Source: Marsupella aquatica (Eukaryota > Plantae > Marchantiophyta). From it: 64,000 nt of DNA. This document shows, piece by piece, positions 1-61,700 of the stretch. The stretch is taken from positions 10,613,525 through 10,677,524 of the forward strand of contig OZ316896.1 of the NCBI GenBank assembly GCA_973895155.1. The letters run 5' to 3'. Made by a program: the position numbers and the translations under genes. Every line of letters begins with the position of its first letter. The stretch's first letter is position 1. The notes under the pieces were generated by a model that worked only from the letters and a program-made list of their open reading frames with translations, did not search any database and was not told the DNA's origin.

Positions 1-71
1 AAATCGGAATATCTAACCCTTGCCAAGAACTCTACACTTGTAATTCCTTGTAAAAAATGCTCTCATTGCCT

Positions 72-10645: not shown

Positions 10646-10905
10646 TTTTGAAATTTGAGGGATAAATCTATCGATGTTGATATTTTAAAATATATTTTTT
10701 CATATGGATGTTTGTAGTTTTGGAATTTAAGAGATAAATTTATCTGATGTTGGTATTGCAAAATGAATTTTCTCCATATGGATGTTTGCACTTTTGGAAT
10801 TCAAGCAATAAATTTATCTAATGTTGGTATTGCAAAATAATATTTTTTCATATTAATAATTGCAGTTTTGGAATTTAAGCAATAAATTTATGGATGTTGG
10901 TATTG
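10646..10905. repeat. Degenerate tandem repeat, about 4 x 74 bp
   Basis: Recurring TTTTGGAATTTAAG.ATAAATTTAT...ATGTTGGTATTGCAAAAT units. Confidence 0.8.
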
Positions 10906-11536
10906 TCGACAAGTATTTTTGTCATCCAAAGTTTTTACAATAGTTTTATCGGATTGCACATTGCGGTTGCGATAACGGCATGTTGACTATACATGTGTGT
11001 GGTTACTATAGTCTATTGTGGAGGTAACTATGAGGTAAATTTGACAAACCATGCGGTAACTTCATGTCGATTGTCATATAAAAAAGTTATGGTAAATAAC
11101 AAAAAATAGAAAGAATTGGAATTTGGTAAGAATTTTCATGATTGAAATCCGGAGTCCGATCCGAGTATCGGAATTTGTTCAAAAAATGGATATGAATTTC
11201 TAGATCAGACCATTCATATATTTTTAGAGAGCATGAATTTTGATTTGACGAACCCTTTTAGGGTCTAATTTTTCCATGATAAATTTAATGTTTGTGACCA
11301 TGAATTTAAGTGGTTTTGACCATTTTCAAATTTCTTGATTCAATCCAAACTCCGATAAAAATTACATTATTTTCTCAAAAATTGGTTTTTTCATGAGGAA
11401 AAATATCAATTTTGCAAGATTTGAAGGAAAATGAAAACACACTTCTTGTTTGCAAAAATAGTTATTACTCGATCTAAAATCTTGTTATAAGGAACCTTGT
11501 AAAATAAGCCTTTCATGGTTATGTTCCATATGATTA

Positions 11537-11680
11537 TCTTATAAAATAATTCAAAACAAAAACACAAATAAAAAATCTCAATAAGATAAATTAAGTAACT
11601 TGAGTAAGCTCCAAAACAAGATAACTATACCCATTGAGATTTATTATATATGTTTTTGTTTTGAATTATTTTAGACAAGA
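11537..11680. repeat. Small AT-rich fold-back (imperfect ~41-bp inverted repeat)
   Basis: TAAAATAATTCAAAACAAAAACAC...AAATCTCAAT pairs with ATTGAGATTT...TGTTTTTGTTTTGAATTATTTTA across a ~50-bp spacer. Confidence 0.65.
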
Positions 11681-12229
11681 CGTATTCTTTGTATTTTTAG
11701 ACTTTCGTATTATCTCCCCTTCCCCGCCTCTTAATATTCTCATAACTTTTTTAGAGCCCCCCTTCAACTGTATATTTATTTTTCAATCTTGCCAATCATT
11801 TGTTAACTGTATGTGTTGTTTTATCTTTATATTCAAGTTCTAATTAATTATCATGGATTATACATACCCTAAGATCTATATTCTCAAGAGACCCATTTGT
11901 GACAAAAAGGACTAATTCTTGGTCCACTACAGGAAGCTTTGCACAAGTAAAAAATATATAAGTGTATTATGTGGTTAAAAACACGTTTGTCATGTAGCCC
12001 CCTAATATCTCACCTATTCCTTTTGTCAATGCACTCATAAGTGCATGTCCATTCTCTAGGGCCAATAGTTTCAAACCAATGTATCAGGAGTTCATTTCAA
12101 CCCAGCCTGAGGGGGGAGATTCAGAGCCGTCAAGGAAATCAACTGCCAACACTTTGTCACACACTAAAGTTGTTGGACCTGGCAAACACACCCTCAAAAT
12201 TGGTCGAACACTCATTTGAATCCTTGCAA

Positions 12230-13300
12230 AAGAGAAGTCAAAATAGACTCGGCAAGCAATAGTACTCCTTGGAGCGTATAATTTTTCATTTCTCAACCAA
12301 AGCTCTGTTGTGCTCTAACTTCACTAGGATGTTGTCTAGTACTGGTATGTATTGACAAAGTTTGGTCTCATTCTGTCTAGGGAATGGGCTCTAGAAATTT
12401 CACAATCTTTGGTTTTATCTCTCAAACAATGCTTATCTTAGTGAGCATTTTACTCCTAAGTAGTTGAAAGTAGGGATATTCGGCAGTTAAGACTCCTATC
12501 ATACCATCATTGTATTAGGGACCTAGCTAAGATAACAATGTGTACCTGGATTTATTTGCAGATCTAGCAAGTCAGAGTTGGTTTTGATAGTGACAAGGGA
12601 GAGAAGTCGAAGGTGGCTTAGGAGACAAGAGTACCCCCTGTAGCGTTTGATTTTTAATTTCTCAACCAAAGCTTCGTTCGTGCTCTAACTTCATCAGAAC
12701 GTTGTCTACTGTCTTGAATATGTACACACAAAGTTTGGTCTCATTCCAAGTTGGGAATGTGGCTCTAGAAATTTCACAATCACTAGTTCTATCTCTTAAA
12801 CGCTGGTTACTTTAGTGAGTAGTTGATAACAAGGACATTCGGTAGCTACGACTCCTATCATACCACCATCTTGTTAAGGACCTAGCTAAGAAACCAATGT
12901 GTACTTGAACTTGTTTGCACATCTAGAAAATCAAAGTTGGTTCCAATAGTGGCAAGGGAGAGAAGTCGAAGGTGGCTTAAAAGGTAGGAGTATCCCCCAA
13001 AACGTCTGATTTTTCATTTATCAACCAAAGCTCCACTTGTGCTGTAACTTCACCACAACATTGTTTACTACTTGGGGTATGTACACGCAAAGTTTGGTCT
13101 TATTCTATTCAAGGAATGTGGTTTTAGAAATTTCAGAATCTCTGGTTCTATGTCTCAAAAGCTACTTACTTTAGTGAACATATTATTTGTGAATAGTTGA
13201 AAGTAGGGACATTAGGCAACTACAACTTCTATCATACCACCATCTTGTTAGGAACCTGGCTAAGAGGACAACATGGACTTGAACTTGTTGCGCAGATTGA
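12230..13300. repeat. Tandem repeat, about 3 x 360-370 bp
   Basis: TCAACCAAAGCT...CTAACTTCA...AAAGTTTGGTCT...TAGAAATTTCA recurs near 12292, 12661 and 13021. Confidence 0.9.
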
Positions 13301-13433
13301 AGTATGCAACTAATTTGTACATAAAACTTGAATAATAGTATTAGTTTGTGTATTATGAATGATTTGTTGGAAGTTATGATTTCAATATTTTTTGTGATTT
13401 ATAACAATTAGTTTTGATTATGGATGTGCAGGC

Positions 13434-14340
13434 ATGGCTCGTCCTAAACAATCATGTAGAAAAGATAAGGGCGAGGGGAGACATATAACTGTGTTTGGAC
13501 CACATGTTTTGAAGTTTTCACGTGAAATCTACCAAAAACCAGTCAATTGTTGTGCCATTTGTGATGATAGTGGAGAGTTGATCATTTGTGATGGACCATG
13601 TTTGAGACACTTTCATCTCAATCCACAATCTCTACATGTAACAAAAAATAATTGTCCAAGGGTGGGCCTTCCACCACCTTCTGGCCAACATGAGAATTGT
13701 GTTGAGTTAGGCCAATTGTAGTTAGGCTAACTCAGGTTAGGATTTAACTAAGGTTAGCAATGATATATGCATGTTGTATATTACCAGGGCTAATGCCAGC
13801 TCGTGATGGATCTTTAGTTCATTTTTGGAGTGGAGCAAGAGAGACGTAAAGGTCTCTTGCTTTTCCATGGATGTAGCCTCAGTAGTGAGATGAACCACGT
13901 ACTCGTTGTGTCAACTACAAGTTTTGTATGGTATTTACATGTGCATGATGTCTCGAGATAACGATTATCCTCAACAAAGTGGAAATGCAAAGATTGCATA
14001 CAAAAATATGCAAAGTGTGCCCAATGTGGAAACTTGGGAAATTTGGAAGGTCATCTTGACTCTCCAATATGTTTGAAAATATTGAGATAGATTTTGTGTA
14101 AGGTTTTTTTGCGTCGCATGTCTACCATCACATACCTCTATCTGCTCGTTACATACATACAAGGCATGTGGTGAACATGATGACCTCAATTGGATAGTGT
14201 GTAAGGTTTTTTTGCGTTGCATGTCTGCCACCACATACTTCTATTTGCCCGTTATATACATGCAAGGCATGTGGTGAACATGATGACCTCAATTAGACAG
14301 ATATTATCCATTGCATTCGATGCCCCACAATGTGGTATTT
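13434..14340 (+). pseudogene. NSD/EDM2-type tandem PHD zinc-finger remnant
   Basis: CCAICDDSGELIICDGPCLRHFH (ORF 13434-13721), WKCKDCIQKYAKCAQCGNLG (from 13980) and ICPLYTCKACGEH...IIHCIRCPTMW (14243-14335) follow the Cys/His pattern of the EDM2/NSD PHD cluster. Interrupted by stops, an intervening segment and a ~104-bp internal duplication. Confidence 0.7.
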
Positions 14341-17300
14341 TTACTTTTCAAAGGAAAGTCAGGCATAAGAATTTGCTTGCAACCAAAAGATATATGATCA
14401 CAGTGCCCCTGGGGTTGACAAATGATTCTTCTATTGTCATCTCCATCCTATCGATCTCACTTTGCATACCAATGTTCGTGATCATATTTCTTGGCTTTAA
14501 AGTTCATCAAATAGCTTGTTTGACTAAAACACCATTGGCAATCAAGTTAGCAAAGGACAAAAGAATGAAAGTTTTAAATTTTTCTTAAGAATATTTTGGA
14601 GTTATTAAAGTAACTTAGATTCACCAGATTTTGTATTCGGGCCAATGAGACCTTAAGCTTGATATAGTTTTGGAGAGTACAGAGATATAAATTTTGAAGA
14701 CAGCCTTGAAAAATATAGAGTCAACACATCAGTAGCTAACTTTCAATAGAGTACACATTTTTTGCTTTAAAGAGGAAGAACCTAAGGAGAGCAAAAATCA
14801 ATACTCAAATAAAATTATGAATAGTTAAAAGCTTTGGTAGAAGAACATTATGTATTTTTTCAGAGGTTAATCATACGTATGTTATGGGGCTTGCAATTGG
14901 GGAGCTTAGGTTTCTTAAACTAGGTTGAAAGCTTTACATTTTTATTCTAATCTAATAAGAATTGAAATTAATAAAGTATTAACAAAATAAATAGACATTT
15001 AAAATGCATGTCGGGTTAGTTACTGTGACTCAATCATTGGAAGATCAAGAACATGCAAATCAGAAAGTATGAAAATCAAAAGTGATATCTGGTGGGCTAA
15101 TTTATGGTGAAGGGTATTTACAAACAATAGGAAATAAAATTTGATAACAAGAAAATGATTGGTAAGTTTTTTAATTTAGAAAAAAAATTAAAAATTGATT
15201 TTTTTGGTGGGGGGGAAGATGTTGTGTTTTTACCCAAAAATATTTGTTTACTAACGCCCAAAGTTAGCCGAAAAATATTATGATTCAATTTTTGGTGGAA
15301 AAATATGATGTTTTAAGAAATATTTTTATATTGTTATTTTTTTTAGTAACAGTAAATTTTTGCTGGTAACAAGAAATATTTTGCTGGTACCAATAAACTT
15401 ATTTTCTGTTTACTGCCAAGCGTGCCATACCCTATGGTGATAAGGTGACCACTTCTCTTTTTGTCTCATCTTTTGTTACATGTATGCAATTTGCATACTT
15501 TAATTTTGTATTTGTTGATGAATTTATGAATACATTAATATAAACAATGTCCAAACTATGTCAAGAAATAGACATAACTAAAGATTAGGCTGTAGAAAAT
15601 AATTACGGACCTCATGAGAGATCTCTTCCAAAATTCTGACACCACAATGTGTCACGTCAACAACAACCATAACAAACAAGACTCATCAGTTTTGTGAATC
15701 AAACTTATAGTTTTCATTCTTGTTTGTGTCAATTTGGGTGTAAATTTTGGGACGTCATGTCGTAAAAAAAAGTAAAAATGCAAAAATGCAAAAAGCAAGA
15801 CGGTTAAAATTGTCACTATGTAACCATTTTAGTTACTTAATATCCAATTTTAAAACTTAAATTCAAAGATTTAAAAAGTATTTTTCATATAATAAATAAT
15901 GACTAATAATTAACTTGATAACTTCCTTGTTAAAGGGTAATTGGCACTTGGAGTAAAATTTCCAACCCTTTGCAATTAAAGTAAAATGCTAGTCATGATC
16001 CGAACTTGAGGTCAACAAATTGATATAATTTATTTGATTAGACATTCATCTAATTGCAAATGGACTTGCCACAGATTGAATTTTGATTCTTGTAGCTTGA
16101 GAAATTGGTTAGTAGCATGTAGCAAAAAGGCCTTATTTTGTAATTACAATGATGAGATATAATTGATGCAAAAGTAAATAAAAGGAGAAAGAAAAGACAA
16201 AATTCTCTCAACTCCAATATAGTATACAATCTATTATAAGATATTCATTATCATCATTATATTACTATATTTTGGAGACCATAGTTTTATGAGTAAAATC
16301 AAGCAAAATTGATATTTTAGTGGGGGTGAAACTTTCAAATTGTTTTTTTGGAGATCTTAGTGTTTGCCATTGATATGATTTGAATTCAATTTGAAATCAC
16401 TATGGTTCAAGATGTCAAGCAAAATATTGATTAATTAATAAACTATAATAAATTAGTAGAAATTCATTATCATTTTATGTTGATCAATAATCTTATTTGT
16501 GTAAGCTTAATTTAACGATCATCAAAATACAACAATCATCATCAAAAGCCAACCTCTTCCTAAGACTGAAGTTTAATTTTGTGAGCTCATCACTCTTACA
16601 TCTAAATTGAAAAAATTACGTATTCAATTTTTAATGAAATGATTGCTCGATGATTGGTTACTCTTTGAATATGGTGTTCACATCTTTTCCGATGTGAAAA
16701 TGAAGGAAGAGTTATCAAAATTTTATTTTGGTTTTCACTTGAACTTGGAAAAACTGGTGGTTGATTTGAGTCTTTTATTACCAATCAATGGAAAATGATA
16801 ATCCACTTGATCACTTTTCGGTAAATTTATCATTGTTTGGGAATGAGATTGCCATAGGGTATGGAAGATTTGTAAACATCTAATTTTATATATAAATCGA
16901 AAGGCAGATCATTTTGAAAAATTTGAAGAACAAAAAATCTCAATAAAGACATTTGCAAAGAGAAGCTTTCTTGATTGAGAGAGGATTTAGCCCACCCAAA
17001 ATAGAACGACATATTGTGTGGAAGGTGATACAAACTAACTTTTATGTCATGGATCCCTTGTCATCTATTGAAATCTGAAATGATAGTTCTACCAATAAAA
17101 TAATAAAGGAACGAATGAAAAGAGTTGTTCTAGAGGGCAATCAACCATTTCTAAGGCATTCAATAATTGATACCTACAATCATAAATGGACTGTTTGTAG
17201 AGTTGATTTGATATCAGCATTGATTGAACAATGCAAGTTGTGGGCCACTTGTGAATTGGAGACAAAGAAAATGAGCACATTAATTTTGTGAGTTAATACA

Positions 17301-17481
17301 GAGATAAGTTAAAAATTGTTGATACAACTTCGATTAGCGCATTGCAATTGAAGTTAATTCATGAGCAATGCTCCCATCAAATCTTATTTGAAATTGTTTT
17401 TCTACTATTTTGTGATTATTTTGGTCGGTAGTGAGAGGATTTTTGGATTGCAAGAATCTTTTCATGGATCTAAGTAAATAA

Positions 17482-17826
17482 TTACTTCAATACATTTCCA
17501 TACTCGATATTGTAAAACATGTTGTATCAACATATTCTTTATTTCTTACAAAGAACTATTATAAGATAGTTCATAATGATCATGATTGTAGTAAATACAT
17601 TATGTTTATGGCATCAAATCTCTCAATGGAAAAACGAGGTGGACATCTAGTTGTTATTGAGTATGGAATAAAGATTCCAATATTAGATGGGGATATTTTC
17701 ATTTTTTGTAAACAAGATATGCATGCCACCTCGTACAGATGTTTCTCTATAGAACCCGTGTATGTAGTTGGGATTGCAATTAATGAGAAGATAGGTGGTG
17801 CCTACACATTTTCAAATGAAAATTAA
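17482..17826 (+). pseudogene. TET/JBP-like 2OG-Fe(II) dioxygenase (DSBH core) remnant
   Basis: Stop-free frame +1 reads STYSLFLTKNYYKIVHNDHDCSKYIMFM...RGGHLVVIEYGIKIPILDGDIFIFCKQDMHAT. It has HxD at 17572-17580, GGxL..GD..F and a distal His, as in TET/JBP enzymes. The 2OG-binding Arg is not evident and the upstream part of the frame is full of stops. Confidence 0.6.
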
Positions 17827-17831
17827 TAAAC

Positions 17832-19447
17832 TATTAGACTCTATCCAACTTTACCCGTTGACCGGACCAGTCGGACACCCGACACAACTATATGTACACA
17901 CCATTCAAGACTCTATACACAGTTATTGACATTCACATCATCACACATTATCAGCACGAGAGCTCAACCACCGGAGCAAAGGAGAAAGAAAAGAAAACTA
18001 TGAAAGATTAAACAATTTTAAGTGGCGAATGGTGAAAAATCTAATTGAACAGGACTAAGGCGAATGAAGGCGAATGAAGAGTCAAAGCAAAAATGCAAAT
18101 GAGATCACAGAAGGAAGAATGAGCACACAGAAGTAAAAGAAGGAGGCTAAGAAACTTTCAAAGGGCTATGAAGATTGCAAGAAACAGGGAGTGAGGAATC
18201 AAACATGAACCCTTTAATAGAAGAGAGGAAAAATACCTTAAAAAGTGCAATCGAATCTGAATCCATTGAATCTCAATAGTGCAGAAGAATAATTTTGAGG
18301 AAAAGAATAAGGATGAAAGGCGAAGAGGTGTTGATTGATTGGATAAGAGCAGCAGATTGCAAATCATAAAGGATCAAAGGATAAGGCTAACCAAAGGCGC
18401 TACACAAAATCAAAGCTTAAGGAATGCCCTTAGAAACACCCACTTCCCTGCACTGAGTAAGACGATACAAAAGGATCAAAGGCATCAAGAAACAATTATA
18501 GAGAATTCAGGAATAAAACAGAACTGAAAAAATAGAAGGAGCCCTCTGATAAACGAAGGCGAAGAGCGAAAGCAAAGGCTACCAGCATAAGTGTAAAAAC
18601 GGAAGAGAAGAGATAGAAAAAAAGAGGAGATCTCCATAAGAGAACCTGAAGAGCCAAAGCAAGGCCGAACGAGAACACACGGGGCACAACCGCCACTAGA
18701 CAAATCTCACAACATTCAATCAAAAAACGTCAAGGGAACGTCGAAAAACCGCCGCTAAATGCATAACCCTCTTTAATTACAAAATCCGTCAAAGAGATTT
18801 CAGATACAAAGGAAAAGTTGCACTTAACCATAAACACACATTTAAGTGCAAAATCCCTAAGCGCATAATCCGTCAAAGAGATCTCACTTACAAAGGAAAT
18901 GTTACACCAAATAAGCGCACATAACCGCAAAACCTTCATAACTGCACACCGTAACAAAGAAAACTTAACTTTACAAAGCCGCATGTGCACTTAACCAGGG
19001 CACGAGTAAAGAATCACCCATAACTGTACACATTGCAAAACTTCATTACTGCACAATTTAACAAAGGAAAGAGACAATACAAAGGACATTTTCCAGTTAA
19101 CCAAATAACAAGGAAAACCTAAATCCTAAGTGCAAATTCTAAAATTGAATTCCAGATTTGCATGTCCTCTTCACCAAGACACACCCTACATGCCACATAA
19201 ATGTGTTTTGTCAACTTTTACTATATGTACTAGTACATACGCCCCAATTACCATTAAAAGGAACTTAGAAAGCTAGTGACATAGCAACCCTAGATGGCCA
19301 ACCTTGAGAAATTAACTTTTCCAGCCCTAGAAATCGATGGTAGCAATTACCTAGAATGGTCCATGAACCTCAAGGAGAACCCGACACAACTATATGTACA
19401 CACCATTCAAGACTCTATACACAGTTATTTAAATTCACATCATCACA
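17832..19447 (+). mobile_element. Internally deleted Ty1/copia (Bianca-like) LTR retrotransposon
   Basis: The 5' LTR (17832-17945) is followed by the PBS-like TTATCAGCACGAG. The gag N-terminus MANLEKLTFPALEIDGSNYLEWSMN (19294) is fused directly to a truncated 3' LTR (19379-19447, near-identical to 17877-17945). TSD TAAAC at 17827-17831 and 19448-19452. Confidence 0.85.
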
Positions 19448-19519
19448 TAAACATGATTCATATTTTGTTATATATTGATTTTGCTTGTCCATATGTATTT
19501 TTGCTTATTTTTGTAATAG

Positions 19520-21310
19520 ATGGATGCTCTCATAGTTTTAAAATCCCTTTATAAATCCACGGCATATTTTGTTAAAAATATTCTTATTTTAATATTGTAT
19601 ATGCAATGGCAACTTACTATACATTTTCTGACAAGTCTTGTTTTTTGTCTTGTGACTTTTGTTTTTCTGATAGAGATCTATAATTGTTCTAAAAAAGGTG
19701 GAATTATACACTGGAAAAATAAATTATTAGTTCATTGGAGTTTTGGAGAATATTTGGAAAATATATGGATACAGCAAACATCAATTCAATGTGTGAAGAT
19801 GTGATGGTAGACTCACTTCACATCGGTTACACTATGAAGGAATGTGCATTAGCACTTGGAATATGTCAAATTACCTTATGACGATGGTTGAAAGTATTTG
19901 ATAATGGAGAAAAATGTACCCAATATATACGTTTGAGGAGGTTGGGCAATTGATTTTAGAGTTTTTTCTCATATATGGATATGCAAAAGATTGCAGAATA
20001 AGAATGATAAAGGTACGATTATGAAGTGTTGGATACAAAGTTCCAAAAAAGCTTGTACTTGCATCAAGAGCACGCGAATGTCTAATATATTGGGTTTACG
20101 ATGTCACCAAAGCAATGCATATTTGGCATATGAACTGTGAGTAAAATTCAAGTATTTATATACTCTTATTTACATTGAATCAATCAATTTTGACTATATA
20201 TGATTCAGATAGTTTGTTCATGATCATGAAATTATCTACTAATTTATTTTTTAATCTCTTGTGCAACATATGACAAATTAGCAAATTTATGGAATTAGAG
20301 TTCATGGAGCTATCAATGGAGCTACACATTATGTTATGTATATGCATGTTGCATTAAATAAGAAAGCCCTGACTATTTATGAAGGGTATAAAAATGTGAT
20401 TCAAATATTTGGTCATCCTTTATTAATTAGTTCTGATTATGCGATTGAACATATTTTGGTCCAAAATAACCTTGAAAGGGCAAGACCAAATGCTCATAGT
20501 TTTCGCAAAGGTTTTTCAGTTCATAATCAGGTAGTATTTACACTCAATTATATGTTATCAAAATTATTTGCTTGATATGCTTATTAACATACTATTGTTT
20601 TGCCTATGGGACTTATGGGGGCCCGACGTTGCATTGGCCGCGATGCTGATTTGTTGTCTGTGTTGTTAATGCTTTATGTCTGCCCTCCCAGGGGTCATGT
20701 CATTTAGCTGGCTTTTTGATGGTCTGGTTGTTTCCCATCTATCACGGGGTTTTTGTGGCTTTAACTTATAAAAGAAAAAAACAATTTCAAGGAACATATA
20801 TACTAATTTTTTTACAATCAATATGATTTTTATAGAGGATTGATCGAAGCATTTTGGGGATCGGATTCTTGAAGAAACAAGGATTGGATGCCTTGCATAG
20901 ATACTCCATTGTTGCTGTACTTCTTCCATTTATTCAAAATGTTGTAAATGATATCATTCTAACATGGAATGCCCATACAGTGAGAGCGATGCGAGAACGG
21001 GGTGTGAACAGACCATCACACATTCCTCAATTTTCTTTTCAAGGAAGAGAAAGAGAATCTAAAATAATTTTACCTCCACCATATCGTGAAGAAGGTCAAG
21101 TTGATATTCAAGATGTAGATGATATTATTGAGACTATTGACACTGATTATTGGAATCATAATGATGATCATGGAAACTTTGAACATGATGTTAAAGATTT
21201 AGACGATGAGGTAAGTAAAGCAAAATGTATTTTATTTGGTTGCATATTCTTTTCATTAATTTCAAATTCACCAAATACTTGTTTTTTTGGTGTAGTGTCT
21301 TTGTGATATC
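19520..21310 (+). mobile_element. IS3EU-type DDE transposase (integrase core), intron-containing, decayed
   Basis: HTH-like GYTMKECALALGICQITL, then HIWHMN | YDKL..YGIRVHGAINGATHYVMYMHV, FGHPLLISSDYAIEH, GFSVHNQ |intron 20531-20835| RIDR and LLPFIQNVVNDIILTWNAHTVR. This matches the WHiDGhhKL..HGgIDG..DxGgEN..SvHNQRIE..WN.H signature. Contains stops and frameshifts. Confidence 0.8.
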
Positions 21311-22799
21311 TATGATTTTGCATATGAAACTAATCAGATTAGAGTCTCATTGGAGGAGGACAAGTTAAGAATGCATTTGTTGCTTTCTCTTGAATGTGAA
21401 AGTAGTTCTCATGCCACTATGGGGTTGACAGTCTATCTGTGTACATCAATAACTAAATTTTAATAATTTGCCAGAAGAAAGGTCACGGCTTTGAATACCT
21501 TGGACCAGACACTCCAAACTATCAAAAATAGAACTGGCCACACATGAAGTAAGTTCTTATGGGGAACTTATAAATGTGACATATTATATTGTATATTAAT
21601 CTTAAAGTAGATGATTGCAAGTTGTATTATTTTTATTAGTTTGGGTTTAATGTATGTTGCATGTGTCTGTTAATTCTCTATGGATTAGACTCTTTTTTGT
21701 CTTGCCTTTGATTGAACTCTTATTGTTTGTTTAACAGTTACCTTACTTTCTATTTTGCAGGTAAATTTTGCGATGAGACATGCTAGTACTTGAGAGACTC
21801 ACGCATGTTTTCCAAGGTGGGCGTCATGAGCAAGGGACCCCTAGGTTACTATTTAAATTAGTTAATTAATCAGAATGTCTTTGAATTTTCCATGGCTAGA
21901 GAAGAAATGAAGACCTGTATAATTGAAATGAACTTGAATTTAGGCTATGTTTAGTCATTTGTAATTTTTGTAACCCGGTCAACTACTTTGTCTATTATAA
22001 TATATATCTCCCAAAGAGTTAAATTGCAGTTGATTCAATTCTGACTGACCAGGGTACATCTTAGTAGTAATTTGCCATAGATAGACACTTTCAGGGAAAA
22101 ACTTAATGTGCATGAATTGGGGCCACCTAAGGTATTTCTTTTGAAATATTAGTTACACGAGGTAATGCAATGGGCATGCATATAAATGCATTCCAATGTG
22201 GGTAACAAAGTGGGTTTCAAAGACAAGCACAAGTTAGTAGTTGAAACCAACTTTGTGGCAACAGAGCTCCCAATGAAACAGTTAGAATATGACCAAGTCC
22301 ATATTTAGTCTGTCACTCACAAACACACATGCTTACCACCAAGATGATCCTCGTCTGATAGATTTGCACTACTCAATTTCATTTTTCATTTATTCTTGTT
22401 AATCAGTAATGTGGACCTCTTGAGTTGTGGCTTCTACTAGCCATGATAGGTGTTAGTTGATGTGGTTGTGCCTACACATTGACGCTTCAGTTGGGTGAGC
22501 TGATCAAGGTGACAAACTGACACGCTTCTTTGTGGATGGACAACAATTCACTATGATAAATGAAACTATAATAAAAGTCTTATGTATCATGTAGTCTTCC
22601 TTACTTTGGCCTTCATATGATGTAAACAAGAAAAACTCAGTTGATACACTAGAATTGTGGGAGCTTATATATGTGCCAGGTAAAATCCAAGCCTCTTTTG
22701 GCTCCTTCCAGTCTCTCTTGGCCGTCTATGCTGAAAAAGGGTGGACGTCCCAGACGTCTTTACAAAGGGGGCGTCACCTTATTGCCGTCCTGGCCACCT

Positions 22800-23850
22800 T
22801 CAGTTGGTTTAAGAAAATTAAGATCATCCTTTGGTCATAGGCTGGACATCCCAACTCAAGGAACATAATTCATATTTGGGCCGGCCACAATGTCTTCATC
22901 GTCTTGACTTTACTCAAAGATCTTGCCATCCTCATTAAACACTATGTAATTAAGGTTTGAAAATTTCTCAATTTAATACTTTATACCCCTTCTAGGAATA
23001 ACCACTATATCACACACCTCCTGCCCCTAGCAGTAGTTGATAGTTCACAATGCCCCCAACTGCCAGAACATTATTTTAGACCATACACTCTGCCTTGTTG
23101 GTTTGTCTTAAATTTGCATACAATCCTCCTGTCCCTCAAATCCAATATTGCTTGGGCAAAAGCCGTTCTTTGGTCATAGGCTGGACCTCCTTACTCAAGG
23201 GACATCACTAATATTTGGGCCGGCCACAATGTCTTTGCCATCTTGACATTACTCAAAGATCTTGCCGTCCTCATAATGCACTATGTGAGCCTGTTTGAAA
23301 AGTTTGAAAAATTCTCAATTTAATACTTTATACACCTTAGTTCTAGGAATGACCACTATATCACACACCTCCCGCCCCTAGCAGTAGTTGATAGTTCACA
23401 ATGCCCCAACTGCCAAAACATTAATTTAGACCATACACTATGCCTCGTTTGTTTGTCTTAAACTTACATGAAATCCTCCCGTCCCTCAAATCCAATATTG
23501 CTTAAATAAGCAAAACCCGTTCTTTGGTCATAGGTTGGACCTCCTTACTCAAGGGACATCACTAATATTTGGGTTGGCCACAATATCTTTGCCATCTTGG
23601 TTTTATTCAAAAATCTTGCCGTCCTCATAAAGCACTATGTAAGGTTTGAAACATTTGAAAATTTCTCAATTTAATACTTATACCCCTTCTGGAATAACCA
23701 CTATATCACACACCTCCTACCCCTAGTAGGAGCTGATAGTTCACAATGCCCCCAACTGCCAAAATATTATTTTAGACCATACACTCTGCCTCATTTGTTT
23801 GTCTTAAATTTGCATGAAATCCTCTCTTCCCTCAAATCCAATATTTCCCT
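22800..23850. repeat. Tandem repeat, about 3 x 340-355 bp
   Basis: CTTTGGTCATAGG.TGGAC...ACTCAAGG...CCACTATATCACACACCTCC...CCCTCAAATCCAATATT recurs near 22829, 23168 and 23522. Confidence 0.92.
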
Positions 23851-25765
23851 GAATCTGCATTTTGGTAACGCTCGTTCTCAAATCATTGAGTATGCATGTC
23901 TTAACCCTCCTAATGCAAGTGTCACTAAATTTGTCTAAGTAGAGGCCTTTTTGTGAGCAATAGTTGTGGAGCGCCACCTCTGCATGCCTTAGTTAGCACC
24001 TTGGCATGGAGGTGGAGCAACTTGCTATCAGACGTTACAAGTTAGTTCTCTATAGTGATCGGGACTATTGCAATTTATTTTGGTATTTGACAATGTACTG
24101 ATGATCTTAGTTGCACAAGAGGAAATTATCAAGAAGAGCTTGTTGGGGATCACCTTCAACATACAGTAGTCGCAAGAGAATCAACCAAGCAACAAAGCTT
24201 TGAATTTGGCCTAGAAATTAAAAGTAGAGTAGAGAAGAGGAGGGCGGACAATGGGTTCGTTTGTGCATCACAAAGACCTAGTGTAAACATCAATGATCTA
24301 AGGTAATTTTTCAAATTAAACTATTCATCCATAAGTCCTAAGTTGTTGGACCCCAAGTTTTCCATATGGAGCACCTTTGCATGAAACACCTTATTCATTT
24401 TTTAGCTGGTACTACAGCCATGCTGTCCAATACATGCAGGAAAACAAGGGCTACATAGGACAGCATTTTAATTTACAGCATGAATGCTTTATTAAAAAGG
24501 AAAGAGCTGCCCCTCAAAAAAGGTGGATCAACCTAGAAATTTTTGAAAAGGCTGTGAACCAAACACTAAGAAGGTAAATCATAATAAAATGGCTGACATT
24601 TTGGTTACAAGGTATTTGTTGATCCATATGAGAGTTCTTAATAATATGCCCACATGTAATAAGCTAGGTGAAATGATGAGACAACCATAGTAGATTAAGC
24701 CTTTAATTTGTACAACTTTATTTACAATGTCTACCAAATGGTAGCGCACTCCAATGGAAGATGGAAACAAATTGATCTTCTGAAAATGGTTTGACTAGGT
24801 TGGTGGTCCCCCTCGATAACCTCTATTATTTCCTCTTGTATCTTTGTAGCAATCACATTTTTTATTTTTTCTTAGAAGACACATCCTCAGTGCAAGCTAT
24901 GAACTAGAGTTATAGCTTGCACTGAGGAAAGTAAATTAGGCTACGTTCCAACAACAGATCAAGTAGGAGATTTCATACTCAAGTTAGGCCTTGATTGCTT
25001 CTGAACTTTGTCATTTTATTCCATCATAGGTTCAACAAATAATAATTCATCATCAGTTATAGCAAAAGACCCTCTAAGTATGGGTTCTTGTGTCAATGAA
25101 AGTAGTGTTAAAGGGTAGTGATGTTGTTATGGCTCAAGAGCTATCATATTGCAAAAATGGCTCTGAGATCCTCCAAAGTGAGAAGTAATGCCCTCAAGTG
25201 CATAATGTAAGAAATTATGGCTAATCAATCTACATGCAACATGCTCATCAACAACAACCTTCACCATAGTTTCTTGGTTATTCTTGTGAGCCAATTAAGA
25301 ACTCATCCCATTCTGGATCCCACTAGTTACTTAAACCACAACTGCCCTTCAAAAGCTACGGGTTACCTGTAGTTACCATTAAAAGGAGATTTTTCCTGAA
25401 ATTGTGGAGCAAACTGACATGCTAGAGGAGAACAATGATTGAAATGTGAAAAAGGGGGAGGTCTTGGACACTTCCCCTTATATATAGGGGAAGTTGTGGT
25501 TTAAGAGCTCCAAGGAGATATGAGTTGAATCTTCTCATCATCGTTTCCTTATTGCAATGGTAGATTGTAGAGCGGGTTTGATCAGCATCCAAGGTCTGCA
25601 AATTCAGTTCTTCATGTTTTTCAGCTTCAAGTTTATCCCTCTTAAGTGGTACCATAGTAGGATTGGGGAAACTCTCACTACTAGGGAGTAAAGTTACATC
25701 ATCAGTTATCAATCATCTCCATCAGTTGACCAGATATCAGTTGCCATGTCATCTTAGAGAGGGCG

Positions 25766-27635: not shown

Positions 27636-27935
27636 TTGTGATGCTCAATTATATATTAGAGGAGGATCCTTTGCACACTACCTGAGCCTTTTGAGATACG
27701 TAATCTATGGCCAGGAGACACTGCGCACCTGTGATGCCCAATTACATTTTAGAGGAGGATCCTTGCACAGTACCTGAGCCTTTTGAGATGTTGTATTCTA
27801 TTGCCATGAAATCACTGTACCTGTGATGCTCAATTATATTTTAGAGGAGGATCCTTGCACCGTACCTGAGACGTTTGAGATACCGTATAATATTGCCAGG
27901 AAGACACTATAACTGGCATGCTCAATTATATTTTA
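27636..27935. repeat. Tandem repeat, about 3 x 92 bp
   Basis: TGTGATGCTCAATTA...TTAGAGGAGGATCCTTGCAC..TACCTGAG units near 27638, 27730 and 27822, with a further partial copy near 28143. Confidence 0.85.
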
Positions 27936-43600: not shown

Positions 43601-43783
43601 GTGAAATCTTCCCTTGAAATGATGAAGACGGATCAATGCTAAGACCCTCCTGCGGCTGTCTTCCCCAACCTGAGAAGATTCTCTGAACTGCTAACATCAG
43701 GTCACTGGACAGGTGCCTTTCTCTGCATATCGCTCAGTCTTAGAAGTCGGAATTGATTGCCAGCAACCCTTCGGTGTGGAGTC

Positions 43784-45448
43784 ATGGCAGGCTCACCACT
43801 GATCATGGCGATTTTGATGAAATTGTCCCTTAGTTTCTGGTTACTACTACTATTTCCCCTACCGATATTGGCCATCGCACCAGCTTCACCGGCGTGCGCA
43901 TCATCCAGATGCAGTGGCACCACTGGTGAGAAAAATAATGAAAGCGCAATTGGGCAGCCTTATTCTCGAGGTCTGGGACAAGAGCTTCTGAACACCAAAT
44001 TGGGGATACCACATCGTCCAAATCTAGATTCTCTCACTTTCAGAACTGCCAAGAGGGGCCTGAAGGCCGAGCTCATTCGGTACCATCATCAATCTTCCCA
44101 ACCTAACTCGTCGGAGATATCCTTGGACATCAAACGGAGCCTAGCCAGGGGAAGAAATCTGAAGTCCAAAAAGACGCCCAAGGCATCGCTGAAGGGGGCA
44201 GCTAAAAGGAAAAAACCCTATGAAGCCCAGCAACAACCAGTACTTGGATTGCACACGGATCTTGCAACAGTCGCCCCATTCGAGTACCTGATGAAGATCT
44301 CCATCGGCACTCCTCCCCAGCATTTGATGGCAGTGGCTGACACAGGCAGCGACCTCGTCTGGCTGCAATGCACGTCTCCCCCACGACTCGAGGACCAGCA
44401 GCAACAGCCATTGTTAGACAACAAACATATCTTCGACCCGTCCAACTCTAGAACATTCTCCAAACTGGCCTGCAACTCGAAGCCATGCCATCTCCTCAGC
44501 ATTCAATACAACGACTGGATCTCGTGCTCGGGATCCTCGAGATGTCGCTACTCTTACTTTTATGCGGACAACTCGAGCTCGACAGGTGACCTCGCTGTGG
44601 ACACTCTCCACATGAAAAGCATATCGCTGGGCAGCAAAATGGGAGGAGGAGAGTTGCTCGACTGGGCTTCTGTCCACAACTTCGCGTTCGGCTGCGGACA
44701 AAAACAATACAGCACCTCCATGTTGTACGTGAACGCCGACGGGGTTGTGGGTCTGGGCAAGGGTCCACTGTCGTTCCCTAGTCAGCTGGGAGCTCAATTT
44801 GGGAGACGGTTCTCATACTGTCTCGTGGATCGGGAGAAGTCCACAGTGAAGTCGAGTCCAATTCTCTTCGGGGGAATTGCTGTGCCAACAACGCCTGGCG
44901 TTCAGTACACACCATTCCTTGACAACCCTGTGTACCCGACCTACTATTACATCGGGCTTGAGCGAATTGAGGTGGGGGAGGAAGTTCTGGACATTCCGTC
45001 CGATGTTTTTGCGTTGAACTTGGGTGAAGGAGGTGGGGATGAGGGTGAGGGTGGCACAGTGATCGACTCCGGGACGACTTTCTCTCAGCTCGTTGCGCCT
45101 GCTTACACAGCATTGCTACAAGCTTTGAGCACGAGGATCAACTACAAGCGGGTCGCTGGATATTTCGATTTCTGCCACGATGTAACGGGCATTTCGAGGA
45201 ATCTGATTGTCGTGCCGCGCATCTCTTTCCATTTTAGTGAGGGCGCCAAGTTGGACCTCCCGTTCAAGAATGCCTTCATTCTGGTGCAGAATGATCCTGT
45301 GCAAGGGAAGACCACCATGTGCTTGGCTATGAACAACAGCACTGATTTGGGATTCACTATCATCGGGAACTACCAGCAGATTAACCACCTCATTCTGTAT
45401 GATCTGCAAGAGAAGCGCCTTGGAATTGTACCCCAGCAATGTGGATAA
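43784..45448 (+). CDS. A1 family aspartic protease (nepenthesin/CDR1-like), single exon
   Basis: Long ORF with signal peptide, EYLMKISIGTPPQ, catalytic DTGSDLVW and DSGTT, FSYCL, YYIGL and IIGNYQQ. First ATG at 43784. Confidence 0.95.
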   Translation: MAGSPLIMAILMKLSLSFWLLLLFPLPILAIAPASPACASSRCSGTTGEKNNESAIGQPYSRGLGQELLNTKLGIPHRPNLDSLTFRTAKRGLKAELIRYHHQSSQPNSSEISLDIKRSLARGRNLKSKKTPKASLKGAAKRKKPYEAQQQPVLGLHTDLATVAPFEYLMKISIGTPPQHLMAVADTGSDLVWLQCTSPPRLEDQQQQPLLDNKHIFDPSNSRTFSKLACNSKPCHLLSIQYNDWISCSGSSRCRYSYFYADNSSSTGDLAVDTLHMKSISLGSKMGGGELLDWASVHNFAFGCGQKQYSTSMLYVNADGVVGLGKGPLSFPSQLGAQFGRRFSYCLVDREKSTVKSSPILFGGIAVPTTPGVQYTPFLDNPVYPTYYYIGLERIEVGEEVLDIPSDVFALNLGEGGGDEGEGGTVIDSGTTFSQLVAPAYTALLQALSTRINYKRVAGYFDFCHDVTGISRNLIVVPRISFHFSEGAKLDLPFKNAFILVQNDPVQGKTTMCLAMNNSTDLGFTIIGNYQQINHLILYDLQEKRLGIVPQQCG

Positions 45449-47820: not shown

Positions 47821-49671
47821 TTAATCGGAAATGTGAACATAGGATTCGGCATCTCCCTCTCGACTTTTGCTATTCGATGGAGATAGAGACCTTTGTCGCC
47901 AATCCTTCAATTCTGGACTGCTGGAAGAGTGATTTGGATGCCGTCCATCCAACGAGACAGCAGCACCAGGACTGTTATCGACGGCAGCAGTCTGCGTGCC
48001 ATTACTGCCACTAGACGGCAATCGCCTCAATCCACCTTCAACAAGTTCACTCGGTTGTCTTGGAGTGGGCAAACGTGTGGCAGACCCATTGGCAGGGGCT
48101 TCCACATCGACCTTGCTTGCATCAGAGCTTCTTGCATCCGTTTCCGAAGTGAAGAATGGTCTCAAAAAGTTCTTATCAAGCGCTTCGAAATTAGCTTCCT
48201 GACGAAATTGCCGTAACTTCAATTTCAGCTGCTGGGTAGCATCTTCCGGATTGCCATCATCATCTTCGTCATCGTCGCTCGTTACCCTAAAACGCTCATC
48301 TTCCTCTGGATCCAGCCTCTCTCCCGGAAGCACAGCTGCATGGTTATCTCCCACAACATCCAGCTTTTCCAACACAGTGGAAGTCCCTCCGCCAACGAAG
48401 AGAACCGTGACGACAACGATTGCCGTGGTGGCAGTCACTATTGCTCGACCGTGGCCGTCTGGAAGGTCATGCACAGACTGCAAGGCCAATGCGAAAGCCA
48501 TGGCACCCCTGAGCCCTCCAAACCAGAGAGCTTTCTGATGTGCCAAAGGTATTTTCCTCGAGTCGGACCGGAAGAAGTTGACGATGTACGCACAAGGGAA
48601 GACATTTGCAGCCCTGGCGACGAGAATGAAGATAATGGAGAAGAAAATGAACCCCACATGGCCCCAGCTATGCTTCTCAATCGCAATGTCCACTCCCATG
48701 TATATGAACACAAAAGTCTCGGCCAGAGAGGAGATGAGATTGAAGAATCCAGCGGTGAAACTTCTTGTACTGTCCGAGAGATTTGAGAACGTGTAATGCT
48801 TCATCAGAATTCCACAAAACAGGATGGACACAATGCCAGACAGGCCTAAGCCCTCTGCCAGCATGTACGCAGCATAAGGAAACAAAACAATGAGACAAGA
48901 CTCTAGATTGTGTAGGCGGTTCACGGCAAGGCCCGTGTACTTGAATAGCAGAGCACAGATCAGAGCCACCGAAGTTCCTGTGAACATTGACCCCCCAAAT
49001 ATTTCAAAAAACCTCCAGACGCCGGCTAAAATGTTGTGGTGGGACGACGGATTGTGGCGAATGGACATGAAGCTACGGTAGAGAGATATCGCCACTGCAT
49101 CGTTTAGCACGGATTCTCCGAAAACTAGGGCATAGAGATTCACATCAGTCCCAAGCTCCTGGAAAATTCCCAGCACCGTGACCGGATCCGTGGCGGAAAT
49201 CAGGGAGCCGAAAATCAAGCTCTCTTGGAACGACAATCTGTACATTAAGAAGAACAATCCGCCGAGGTAAACCAGAATCCCCGTGATGATCGACGCCAGG
49301 AATGTCCCCACAATCGCGAATGTACAAATGGCACCGAAATTCGAGAAGAAAGGCTTGGGCTGGAGGCTGTAGCCGGAGTGGAAGATTATCGGGGGCAAGA
49401 GGACGAGGAAGAAGAACTCTTCCCGGAAGTTGAACCACTGCCGGAACCGTTCCTGCGTGTTAGAAATGTTCGCCACAGCACCGGCGAGGAGCCCGATCAG
49501 GAGCGATGCGCTGGCCTCGTGAAGGTAATAGATTTTGTGGCGCCGGAGTATGTGCCCCAACACAAAGGCCAGCCCGAGCATCACTATCTGCAGGAGGATA
49601 CTGATGCTCGCAATTTGCTGCTGGTCCGCGACGGGAGCCCCTGTCGGGGAATTCAATTCCACGTCTGCCAT
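47821..49671 (-). CDS. NHX6: Endosomal-class Na+/H+ antiporter (NHX5/6-like), no introns in CDS
   Basis: 616-aa uninterrupted ORF with [29 protein letters not shown] and [12 protein letters not shown]-terminal LLQIVML..F.LGH.LRRH and [11 protein letters not shown] are typical of NHX5/6. Confidence 0.93.
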
Positions 49672-50150
49672 TGCCGTGGAATCCGATTCCTAACACCCAA
49701 CCACTATCCCTTTTTACCTCCTTCACAACATGACCACAAACTTCTACTAATACTAGACCGCCTCCAATTGAAGGAGCACAACTCCGATTCAATCACCCTT
49801 GGAGCTGACAGATTAAGCTCCCCTTCCACTTCCTCCCACTGACATTGCCGTGGAATCCGATTCGAACCAACCTAATCCTATCCCTGCGTACCTCCTTCAC
49901 AGCATCACCTCAAACTTCTGCTGCTACTAGACCGTGCAGCCTACAATTGAAGGAGCACAACTCCAATTGAACTTCCCCCGGAGCTGACAGAAGATTAACA
50001 AGCTATCCTATCCCTTCTTACCTCCTTCGCAACATCAGCTCTAACTTCTGCTGCTACCAGACCGTGCAGCCTACAATTGAAGGAGAAAAACTCCAATTCA
50101 ACCAGCCCCGGAGCTGACAGAAGATTAACAAGCTCCCCTTCCCCCCCAAC
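49669..50150. repeat. Tandem repeat (about 3 x 130-170 bp) over the NHX start and 5' region
   Basis: CATTGCCGTGGAATCCGATTC at 49669 and 49843. CAATTGAAGGAG..AACTCC...GGAGCTGACAGA occurs three times. Confidence 0.85.
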
Positions 50151-58700: not shown

Positions 58701-61700
58701 TGGCAAATCAGAGCATATGGTGTTTTTCAAACACAACAATAGTACATGTTTGTAAATTACAACCAAATGTCCCTCCCAAAGACCTGCATGGCTTCCAATC
58801 ATGCAAATTCATAATCCAAACTCTTTTGTAATAAGCACAAAACCATCAAACTACAGATAGAAAGAACTAAAACCTTGAGTTGTTCCCTTGTGAGTTCACG
58901 GCCAACATTATGAATCTCCTTCTTCAACACACCAGATTGGTTGACTGCTGCAGAGAGAATGACATGCTCGCGCTTAAAATCTGTCAATTTCAACTTCAGT
59001 ACTCTCAATTCGTTTAGCCGTTCCAAGTATTGAAGCCGTCCTTTGTCAAGAGTTGCTTGTTGAACCCTTATTTTCTCATACACTAACTGCAACTCTTCTG
59101 TTCTTCGAATCAGCTACAGGTCAATAAACAAGCCAAACCATTCATTGCCCAGTCACAAAAGTATGAACCTGCTATTGATAAAGTTGTCCTATACTATTCA
59201 TAAATCCAAGTGTATATTGAGAGGTAAAACAAAGGATCCAAGCATGTGCACTAGTAAGGCTGAGAGGTGAATGAAGTAGAAAATAAGCAGCTCAAATAAT
59301 CACATTGTTTAAACAACAGTTCATGAAGATACATAATGACATCAGCGAATGAAGTAGAAATAAGCTTCTCAAAGAATCTCATTGTTTAAACAACAATTGA
59401 AAGATACAAATTGATATCAGCAATTGGAGATATTTTAAGTGCTAGTCTAGCTTGTAACTTGTGATAGAAAGCTACAGTCTAGAGCTTATGGTCTGGAGTG
59501 AAGCCTGTAGACCATGACTCTGGTATAGCTGTCAGTGTCAGGTGAGGCAACAATGGGGAGGCAACTGTGTCCCTGAGCAAAGCTCGGGCAGAGAGGCTTG
59601 TTGGTATCCATAAAATTTAGCTTGCAGAGCTAGAGAGAATGAATATCTAAGTCTGTTGGGCAAGCATATCAGAAAAGAGATTGAAATTATAGTACACTGA
59701 CCATTAACACCAAAGTTACTTCCAGATATTGCACCGAAGGAATATGACATTAAGTAGGTATCTTGCCGAGCCATTTTTATGGCAATTATACTCAAGGCAC
59801 AAAATCTACTCAGAAGTACATCAATTCTCAAAGGGCTGGATTGGAGTTTCAAAGAGAGTTGGCAAAGGCTCTAGCACAAAGCATCCACTAGTCTCCATAT
59901 ATAATGATGAATCTAGGTCCATTCTCCAAAGCATTCAATCATGGCTATACAATGATAATATAGTGATGTTGTCCTTTCAAGGAACTAGATTTCTTTTGGA
60001 AAACCAGCCTTGGAAATTTCATTGGCCCAATGATATGGATTTGTAGTAGTCTATCTCTAAGTGCGCACTCCTAGGAAGAAGCATCTGGTGTGTGCTTAAC
60101 GCGGGTTTGCAAGTCTATGTGATTGGTGCAAAAATGTGGAATTGTGCATTTATTGGTAAGAGCTACAGTGTCTCCTTGTGCAAGGGCCCCTCTGTCAGTG
60201 AACATTCTTGTGACTTCCAAACTAAATTGTACAACCTTGTCTCGATCGCTGTCCTAAAAATGTTCCTCTACCCCATAAGTGCAATTTTTACTCTACTTCA
60301 AAATGTCATGCATTTATCAGTAACTGTAGTTTAAGGTGATTGTGCGCTTATTGATAAGTGTTCACTACAATTATCAAAGATTTGCACTTAGTTGTTGTTT
60401 AGAAAAGCTTTACAGGCCAGTTTGCCCTAACCAAAGCCAGAAAAGTACAAACTCCGTTAAAGGGATGTGTTGCAGTTAGCCTTGTTTTGCAGTTATTGAA
60501 TGTGCACTTATAGAGAGACAACTTAATTGACTGCATCTTATCATTAGACTTGAGGGCTTGCTTCAGCCTGTGACAAGACAATATAAAAACTTATGCTTGT
60601 CTTGCACTAATTTTCTGGAGCACTTAAATTAACTAAGAAACGAGAGAACCCAGTGGATTTTCAGGCTCGACAAGAACCTGTGCTGCCAGCAAATCACGTT
60701 CTGACTTTATGATAGCAAACTCAGACTCAATGCGTTCTTTTTCAGCCTTCATCTGACTCATGAGAAAATCATGAGTTTCTATCCTGGCAGTATGGCCTGA
60801 TATTCTTTCCTCAGCTTCTTTAATCTGCTCTTGAAGGCTGCTCAACTGCCCATTCAAGATATCTTTTTCCTTACCAATCTACAACAATAGATAATCCCCA
60901 TATAAGTTAGGCAATGGGCATAGTTTGTAATCAGTAAATCAAAATTTGCTTGTTTATCAACACATTTTTCAATGTGCAAGCGATTATAGAAATTTCTAGA
61001 GAAATGTGAATCTAGTGCAAACTGGTATAGACAACAAGCCCTTTAGGTGAATCTAGAGCAAACTGGTATAGACAACAACCCTTCACTCTGGCTCCTTCAG
61101 CAAAGGAAACACATACCCGAGTAATGTCATCTACTCCTTTTTCAAGTTGGGTGTCAGCTAGAGAAAGTTGCTCCTTTAGATGGTCTATCATCTGGGTTGA
61201 GATTGCAAGCTTGTGTTTGGCCTCCCTAATCTCATCCTGGGTTTGCACAAGATGTTTACTGTAGTTGTTCTTCTCCACCCGAACACTCTCATACATGGCT
61301 TTCTGTTGCTTAATCTGCATTTGGCTGCCTTCTATCTTTTTCTGAAGTTCTATGATCCGATACTCCTTTTCCTGCAACTCGTCAAGTGCCTGTACTAAAC
61401 AAAATCTTTGGATTAGAGAACAAAATAAGACTTAAGTTTGTAATGTATTATCCCACTTTCTGTGAGTGTTGAGCTAAAGAATCTTGCATCATTCACATTT
61501 GAAACTTAAGTTGATATTCATTATCCACTGTCTTGCTTGAAAGGTTAAATCTTGGTAGCTTTCATGGTAGAAGCCATTGAAACTGGACAACAATGATTGT
61601 TCCTGGATGCATCATGACTACACAGCATTACAGATGAAGCTCATTTAATTTCAGCTAATAGTTGGCGGCTTCTGAAAGTCACCCATGTGAGAGCTATGAG

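Follow-up and report, generated by a model that had tools for sequence, protein, structure and literature searches.

Do plants carry dioxygenases of the TET/JBP type, and, when the trace of such a gene is met in plant DNA, is it a working gene, a relic of the host genome or the cargo of a mobile element? The question is raised by a 64,000-nucleotide stretch of contig OZ316896.1 (the whole stretch is hereafter called the window), in which an earlier note, made from the letters alone, had pointed to the open reading frame (ORF) at 17482-17826 as a TET/JBP-like dioxygenase dependent on 2-oxoglutarate (2OG) and Fe(II). Here, I show that this ORF is the still-open last 114 codons of a dead gene and that this copy makes no enzyme. 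With good confidence, though short of certainty, the protein family to which it belongs can be placed on a divergent TET/JBP branch of the nucleic-acid-base dioxygenases. The gene tail lies in a multi-copy unit, and the reading of the whole that is moderately favoured takes this unit as a putative integrase-type transposon with the dioxygenase as its cargo.

The translation of the ORF is LLQYISILDIVKHVVSTYSLFLTKNYYKIVHNDHDCSKYIMFMASNLSMEKRGGHLVVIEYGIKIPILDGDIFIFCKQDMHATSYRCFSIEPVYVVGIAINEKIGGAYTFSNEN*, with the motifs HND, GGHL, DGDIFIF and MHAT and a second aspartate, D35. All peptides quoted in the earlier note, together with the HxD...H triad that it described, lie within this translation. 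Compared by phmmer with 1,835,955,588 representative proteins, the ORF has 14 relatives at E<=1e-3, five of which pass E<=1e-10 and one E<=1e-30; the nearest, P0002 (121 residues), shares 59% identity (E 9.1e-35). These relatives, the best E-value and the conserved columns indicate that the frame is real and not a chance opening. In the family alignment of 17 sequences (columns in the region of H81 being counted over the sequences that reach it), H31 and D35 are invariant (17/17 each), as is H81 (14/14), and D33 is kept in 16 of the 17. H31, D33 and H81 satisfy the order and spacing of the TET/JBP iron triad, in the ORF as in the alignment. Other conserved columns are Ser37 (14/17), an aromatic residue at position 39 (17/17) and Thr40 (14/17) and, towards the C-terminus, Thr83 (12/14), Arg86 (12/14) and Asn101 (13/15). 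The window frame retains all of these residues but Thr40, which is Ile here.

Word-seeded homologue searches contributed just P0016 and P0017 to the family, and a search of this kind among longer proteins gave no further members; the ten family proteins looked up in clusters are all singletons without names. No related locus was found in the viral contigs searched, nor in metagenome contigs searched with P0014 and P0017, and P0008 had no match by tblastn in 50,697 phage records. In the longest relatives, P0012 (449 residues) and P0013 (457 residues), about 170 N-terminal residues precede the oxygenase domain; they have no Pfam match and are modelled as low-confidence helices.

That the locus is a dioxygenase gene, as the earlier note had treated it, is no longer tenable for this copy. 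When 15 relatives are compared with the window by tblastn, they find a single locus (17264-17826) and no second TET-like copy in the window, and along this locus the alignment to P0004, the closest long relative, is broken. Residues 13-25 of P0004 correspond to 17233-17271 in the frame of the ORF, residues from about 15/25 to 74 to 17255/17264-17422 in a different frame, and residues from 74 onward to the DNA from 17419, in the frame of the ORF again; these switches mark two frameshifts, near 17263 and 17419. At the site of the second, contigs of paralogues (see below) have one extra base, at 17418. Two stops stand in frame upstream, at 17294 and 17479, the latter a TAA where the relatives read K-D-L-L-Q-Y. 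A hidden Markov model (HMM) of the family, built from seven longer members (438 positions), matches the window solely at its positions 233-426, which fall on 17216-17826, and no resemblance to the N-terminal half of the domain was found by this HMM upstream, back to 12000. The downstream end is well kept: the stop at 17824 fits the ends of the relatives, P0002, P0012 and P0016 finishing only a few residues from it.

One might still regard the 114-codon frame as a working short gene in itself, since it stays open for this length in DNA of 31% G+C and keeps nearly all family-conserved residues. The chance of this is close to nil: translation of the open frame reaches its first Met at residue 41, past the HxD motif, the TAA at 17479 stands in frame just ahead, where the relatives continue, and the product would lack roughly half of its beta-helix domain. 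Moreover Pro47, a further residue conserved in the family, is altered in the window copy along with Thr40, and both are intact in the paralogue contigs, which have C at 17600 and 17621.

What enzyme the intact gene encoded is indicated by a set of weak signals that agree with each other. When 16 family members were scanned against 24,736 Pfam models, six matched a Tet family, namely PF20515 (Tet-like 2OG-FeII_Oxy_6) in four and PF12851 (Tet_JBP) in two, with best scores of E 0.0014 and 19.1 bits for the former and E 0.00029 and 20.6 bits for the latter. No other 2OG-oxygenase family was matched by any of the 16, the only further matches being two unrelated ones at chance level; metabolic 2OG oxygenases, the identity that the earlier note had named as speaking against its own, were thus not among the families matched by sequence. 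In a search of 177,635 distinct PDB sequences with the family profile, the 5mC-modifying enzyme CMD1 of Chlamydomonas reinhardtii came top of two matches (E 0.064), and in a second such search it was the sole match (E 0.078); a profile of a three-member subgroup had no relevant match in PDB. The alignment of the family profile with CMD1 places H31, D33 and H81 on His345, Asp347 and His397, the iron ligands of CMD1 (PMC7854593; this and the other papers are cited from the parts of their text at hand). Of the 30 clusters nearest to it in the ESM Atlas, 25 fall in the set bearing Tet_JBP, with scores of 0.94, the Pfam family being present in just 27-34% of the members and the first match being an unnamed eukaryotic cluster. 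The PHROGs yielded nothing but weak matches with names that do not bear on the family: four of the 16 members matched phrog_274, 'DNA endonuclease V' (E 0.0074), and one a 2OG oxygenase phrog (E 0.11).

Structure models point the same way. AlphaFold models were made of the full-length relatives P0012 and P0016 (not of the window fragment), and both show the double-stranded beta-helix of 2OG oxygenases. VIA re-ranking for the P0012 model puts NgTET1, TET2 and CMD1 on all of ranks 1-13 (Z 10.3-11.7), followed by FTO (9.7). For P0016, CMD1 occupies Foldseek ranks 1-3 (E 3.7e-4, TMq 0.38), and a search independent of Foldseek, over 48,161 chains, is headed by TET2 (Z 11.6, with 228 residues aligned at 4.7 A), followed by NgTET1 (Z 11.0, with 197 residues at 4.1 A).

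Several results weigh against the TET/JBP assignment. The ORF itself matches no Pfam family at E<=10 and, by phmmer, no PDB sequence. The matches of its relatives to the Tet families (14-21 bits) all stay under the gathering cut-offs, which are 27 for PF20515 and 34.9 for PF12851, and the two PDB profile E-values given above are modest only. The models, based on 16-17 sequences, are of low-to-middling confidence (mean predicted local distance difference test score, pLDDT, of 53.4 for P0012; pLDDT 62.8 and predicted template modelling score, pTM, of 0.64 for P0016). Foldseek on the P0012 model returns a mixture of ACC oxidase, DAOCS, CMD1 and CcTet at E-values of about 1e-4; in the wide search with P0016, PHD2 (10.2), CMD1 (10.1) and AlkB (9.9) follow TET2 and NgTET1 at small distances; and the BFVD fold search gives mixed 2OG oxygenases, with a JBP1/TET-named protein at rank 7. 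Two positions typical of TET enzymes are not conserved in the family either: the residue five positions after the first triad histidine (His+5) varies, 10 different residues occurring among the 17 sequences, next to the invariant Asp at +4 (D35), and no basic residue is conserved family-wide at +8 to +16 from the distal histidine, where the family has instead an Arg at +5 in 12 of 14 sequences. None of the tests, taken singly, passes a curated or conventional threshold.

These same observations feed the view that the family is some other 2OG-Fe(II) oxygenase, be it prolyl-hydroxylase-like, AlkB/FTO-like or metabolic, and that its TET likeness comes from the shared fold and the HxD...H motif. 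Every TET-specific signal is below threshold, PHD2 and AlkB lie within 1.7 Z of TET2 (the lead of the TET family over PHD2, AlkB and FTO being 0.6-1.7 Z), ACC oxidase and DAOCS share the top of the P0012 Foldseek list with CMD1, and neither the TET-typical Asp/Asn at His+5 nor the Arg at +10 to +15 from the distal histidine is kept. This view is nevertheless quite unlikely, for among the oxygenases in the Pfam models just the two Tet families were matched, by six of the 16 members independently; no PDB sequence matches better than CMD1, and no other match there is relevant; TET chains hold the first ranks for both models, aligned over 197-228 residues as against 152-175 for the others; and the nearest ESM clusters carry Tet_JBP. 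Small margins and modest models are the reason why TET/JBP kinship is held as probable and not as settled. The identity proposed in the earlier note survives to that extent: the best profile, language-model and fold matches are all TET/JBP, and none of them reaches a curated threshold. A significant match to the double-stranded beta-helix, whose absence the earlier note had also named as speaking against its identification, is strictly lacking for sequence profiles and is present for the fold.

The departures in the active site bear on what the enzyme could do. In NgTET1 and TET2, the equivalents of CMD1 Asp350 are Asp or Asn at His+5. In the family, D35 aligns on CMD1 Asp349 and the variable position after it on Asp350, the residue by which CMD1 binds the N4 of 5-methylcytosine (5mC) (PMC7854593). 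A loop shift of one residue between D35 and the Asp350 site may be involved, and the fungal CcTET deviates at the equivalent site too (PMC12730594). At the other end of the fold, Arg1896 of TET2 and Arg289 of NgTET1, which lie 10-15 residues past the distal histidine, bind the C5 carboxylate of 2OG (PMC7854593). The earlier note had seen no such Arg in the ORF and thought of decay. An Arg is in fact visible, R86, at +5 from the distal histidine, and a basic residue at +10 to +15 is lacking family-wide; as the pattern is common to the whole family, it is not a mark of decay in the window copy.

As for the altered co-substrate suggested as the other cause, it is a possible one that finds no support here. 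In CMD1, Trp358 blocks 2OG (PMC7854593), and the corresponding position of the family holds a small residue (Ala44 in the ORF), so nothing indicates the ascorbate (vitamin C) chemistry of CMD1. An equation of the conserved family aromatic with Trp358 was considered and rejected, the alignment placing that aromatic on Trp353. The sequence is compatible with 2OG and with another co-substrate as in CMD1, and cannot tell them apart.

Set beside the enzymes of known structure, the family is closest to CMD1 in sequence and, by the Z of the two models, to TET2 and NgTET1 in fold. It shares with CMD1 (PDB 7CY4-7CY8; PMC7854593) the alignment of HxD, of a GG-x-[FL] strand and of the distal H-G-T, a structural Z of 10.1-10.9 and the green lineage; unlike CMD1, it has a variable residue on Asp350 and a small one on Trp358, the sequence match is at E 0.06-0.08 only, and the copy in the window is dead. 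Human TET2 and Naegleria NgTET1 are the top structural neighbours (Z 11.7 and 10.9 with P0012, 11.6 and 11.0 with P0016) and agree in the order and spacing of the triad. The two triad histidines are 50 residues apart in the window ORF, and about 50 in NgTET1. These two enzymes differ from the family in that no sequence match links them and in that the family has Asp at +4 and Arg at +5 rather than Asp/Asn at His+5 and Arg at +10 to +15.

The second part of the question concerns the surroundings of the gene. Logan contigs of four public runs (X1-X4, with two species labels) were aligned on 16600-18100 and 12001-24000 of the window. Contigs that match it exactly have depths of about 27-31 in X3 and of 10-12 in X4 (3.8 for one such X4 contig), and contigs of paralogues, 86-93% like the window, have depths of 126-164 in X3 and 45-61 in X4, about 4-5 times the exact-match values, a ratio that counts for less than it might, contig depth being a rough proxy for copy number and the kind of the four runs not being on record. 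The paralogue contigs cover 13493-14113, 14386-15603, 16612-17831, 20752-22230 and both of the tandem arrays that lie on the left and right sides of the unit. From this I infer that the window would hold one copy, a diverged one, and that about four to five near-identical copies would lie elsewhere. A 25-letter string at the loose end of the paralogue contigs occurs nowhere else in the window.

Stretches of the window copy that the abundant one lacks are 13694-13977, 14671-15435, 15604-16164 and 17831-19466. The one named last is bridged in paralogue contigs by the joint 17831>19466, which skips 1634 bases, with 36 other letters in between, at depths of 304.5 in X2, 143.1 in X3 and 59.5 in X4 (the joint is not seen in X1). 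Summed contig depths rise to between 1e4 and 1e5 at 13601-14000, 15601-16000 and 18801-19200 (20350 in X1 for 18801-19200), and these intervals are probably very high-copy small repeats inserted in the window copy; since the extra stretches overlap the very high summed depth, they are likely later insertions of such repeats. As the 1634-base stretch is absent in the paralogues, some 230 bases separate the end of the TET-like gene there from the first of the putative integrase ORFs. Close to either end of the 1634-base stretch lies a copy of a direct repeat of 69 nucleotides with 97% identity (17877-17945 and 19379-19447); the second copy truncates a short ORF starting MANLEKLTFPALEIDGSNYLEW (19294-), which resembles the start of a copia-type gag.

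Single-letter differences between the copies are directional. Window A/T against paralogue G/C is about three times commoner than the reverse (in X1 over 12001-24000, A>G 132 and T>C 134; G>A 51 and C>T 33), and the unit has a CpG observed/expected ratio of 0.42 with an excess of TG/CA. The A/T bias and the CpG depletion fit the deamination of methyl-cytosine in a silenced copy.

What else does the unit encode? Among the 143 ORFs of at least 45 residues in 8-30 kb that were scanned against Pfam, only two pass a cut-off, one with a PHD finger and one with an integrase core (rva_4), both on the plus strand. Three further ORFs around the latter are put down by eye, from motifs of this type of integrase, to a putative longer extent of the integrase gene; none of the three has a match to rva_4 even at E<=10. 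The PHD side of the unit (13493-14113) occurs in paralogue contigs at the same depth of about 5x. Near the PHD finger lie three Cys-rich ORFs that have no Pfam match even at E<=10, and after it, in a Cys/His-rich, coding-like stretch, there is a tandem duplication of 103 nucleotides (14090-14295, 89% identity). Five matches below cut-off, to PIG-H, FtsK_4TM, Baculo_ODV-E27, Ribosomal_L32p and Peptidase_M99_m, were taken as chance.

Is the TET-like gene the cargo of this unit, as a transposon? The odds lean that way by a little. It is favoured by the occurrence of the unit in several copies, by the integrase, by the adjacency of the TET-like gene end and the integrase on the same strand, kept between copies, and by precedents in the literature (see below). 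Two results pull in the other direction: the integrase is detectable over profile positions 22-105 only (84 of 194); and the comparison of 1-17200 with 21300-64000 brought up neither terminal inverted repeats nor target duplications, in a copy that is about 8-14% diverged and a unit whose ends are not defined.

The main rival to the cargo reading is the segmental duplication of a host locus, in which the TET-like gene would be left over from an ordinary family of host genes and the integrase an unrelated relic caught in the duplicated segment. The missing inverted repeats and target duplications are as this would have it, the paralogue depth is just about 4-5 times single copy, and the PHD-finger ORF could be a fragment of a host gene. 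Yet the gene end lies next to the integrase region, on one strand with it, in the window copy and in the paralogues, insertions of other repeats distinguish the copies, in the manner of dispersed ones, the rva_4 match clearly exceeds its cut-off, and there is fungal precedent (see below); a host duplication may be regarded as the less probable explanation, albeit one to be taken seriously.

TET-carrying DNA transposons of fungi were reportedly described by Iyer et al. in 2014. A later work (Kojima 2025) describes 11 lineages of fungal transposons that carry TET, among them IS3EU (PMC12730594), whose DDE transposase is related to those of the IS3 family and whose copies are bounded by 6-bp duplications and inverted repeats of more than 30 bp. 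The likeness to the window lies in a probable divergent TET/JBP gene beside a putative transposase gene in a multi-copy unit, and also in the way of detection, the divergent fungal TET types being detectable only through weak HHpred E-values and structure (PMC12730594). The differences are that the host is here a streptophyte plant, that the ends of the element are not defined, that the copy is decayed, and that fungal IS3EU families carry an alpha-kinase gene where the window unit has a PHD-finger ORF. A plant counterpart is GingerRoot of clubmoss, an integrase-type DNA transposon that falls in one group with IS3EU (PMC10045372, PMC6839031) and in Selaginella lepidophylla is 3.9-12.9 kb long, has inverted repeats of 100-150 bp and often holds gene fragments (PMC6839031). 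The unit may resemble GingerRoot/IS3EU, a DNA transposon of plants whose DDE transposase is related to integrases and which captures gene fragments, and is unlike it in that terminal inverted repeats of 100-150 bp ending in TA..TA and 6-bp duplications were not found in the window. The comparison is by type of integrase; in the text of PMC6839031 at hand, a term search for 'dioxygenase' gives 0 occurrences.

By analogy with the TET-carrying transposons of fungi, a plausible life of the unit can be sketched. It would be, or have been, an integrase-type DNA transposon (IS3EU/GingerRoot-like, by its integrase type) with the dioxygenase as cargo. The intact enzyme would bind Fe(II) through H31, D33 and H81 and would oxidise, or alter in another way, the 5mC methyl group in DNA, and this modification might in turn counter the silencing of the element by methylation.

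Judging by the neighbours of an aspartyl protease encoded in the window, whose nearest clusters in the ESM Atlas are of Streptophyta, the window is plant DNA. The window also has an exon of CFAP58, a cilia/flagella protein, which suggests a plant with flagellate sperm, hence neither a flowering plant nor a conifer. The land plant named in the earlier note is borne out at the level of Streptophyta.

Oxidised 5mC bases have been measured in plant DNA, from a source that is not established, and the literature within reach says that plants lack TET homologues. A 2024 review, in the portion available, mentions TET_JBP proteins for green algae only (PMC11065753), and no report of Tet_JBP/TET in land plants was found in full-text literature, a coverage that leaves out most subscription journals. 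A TET-like family in a plant genome, even as a dead copy, is a concrete candidate source of oxidised 5mC. If the unit is a transposon, the fungal strategy by which a transposon carries its own demethylase would extend to plants. The most far-reaching version, namely that a streptophyte with flagellate sperm hosts mobile elements that carry a TET/JBP-type dioxygenase, a PHD finger and an integrase-type transposase, and that better copies elsewhere in its genome still modify 5mC, is improbable on the present evidence, if attractive; were it true, TET-carrying transposons would for the first time be on record beyond fungi and protists, land plants would have a TET-type enzyme family proper, and oxidised or otherwise modified 5mC would have an enzymatic source in a plant. 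The present copy being without function and its assignment being by remote homology, the value of the locus is that of a lead.

Features of the window (positions are those of the window; a dot marks features without strand)
Feature	Position	Strand	Remarks
TET/JBP-like dioxygenase, C-terminal remnant	17482..17826	+	114-codon stop-to-stop frame; stop TAA 17824-17826
Triad and conserved codons of the ORF	H31 17572-17574; D33 17578-17580; D35 17584-17586; H81 17722-17724; R86 17737-17739	+	
Decayed upstream part of the same gene	17233..17481	+	aligns to relative P0004 across two frames, interrupted
Multi-copy unit, minimum extent, one diverged copy	12300..23300	.	from paralogue contigs; at least 11 kb
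Extra stretch, 1634 bases	17832..19465	.	absent from abundant paralogue contigs; joint 17831>19466
rve-like DDE integrase core remnant (rva_4, PF24764)	20282..20572	+	E 8.7e-11, 42.3 bits (cut-off 26)
Putative integrase gene remnant ORFs	19723-19878, 19937-20137, 20282-20572, 20836-21303	+	only 20282-20572 supported by a tool
PHD zinc-finger ORF (PF23011, PHD-1st_NSD)	13398..13718	+	E 8e-7, 29.5 bits (cut-off 27)
Tandem repeats of about 360-373 nucleotides, left side of unit	12231..13289	.	families D1, D4, D5, D7, D10
Tandem repeats of about 340-354 nucleotides, right side of unit	22829..23845	.	families D2, D3; paralogue joint 23326>22981
TAXi-type aspartyl protease, intronless	43757..45448	+	nearest ESM Atlas clusters Streptophyta, 0.98
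Na+/H+ exchanger	47821..49689	-	PF00999, E 1.3e-63
CFAP58 central coiled coil exon (PF21771)	61012..61431	-	E 2.3e-17

The aspartyl protease and the Na+/H+ exchanger are long single-ORF host genes in a region of about 50% G+C. At the left tandem array, the paralogue joint 13287>12556 represents a difference in the number of repeat copies. More tandem repeats lie in the AT-rich flanks, at 10695-10916 (three copies of 74 nucleotides) and at 27637-27910 (three copies of about 92 nucleotides).

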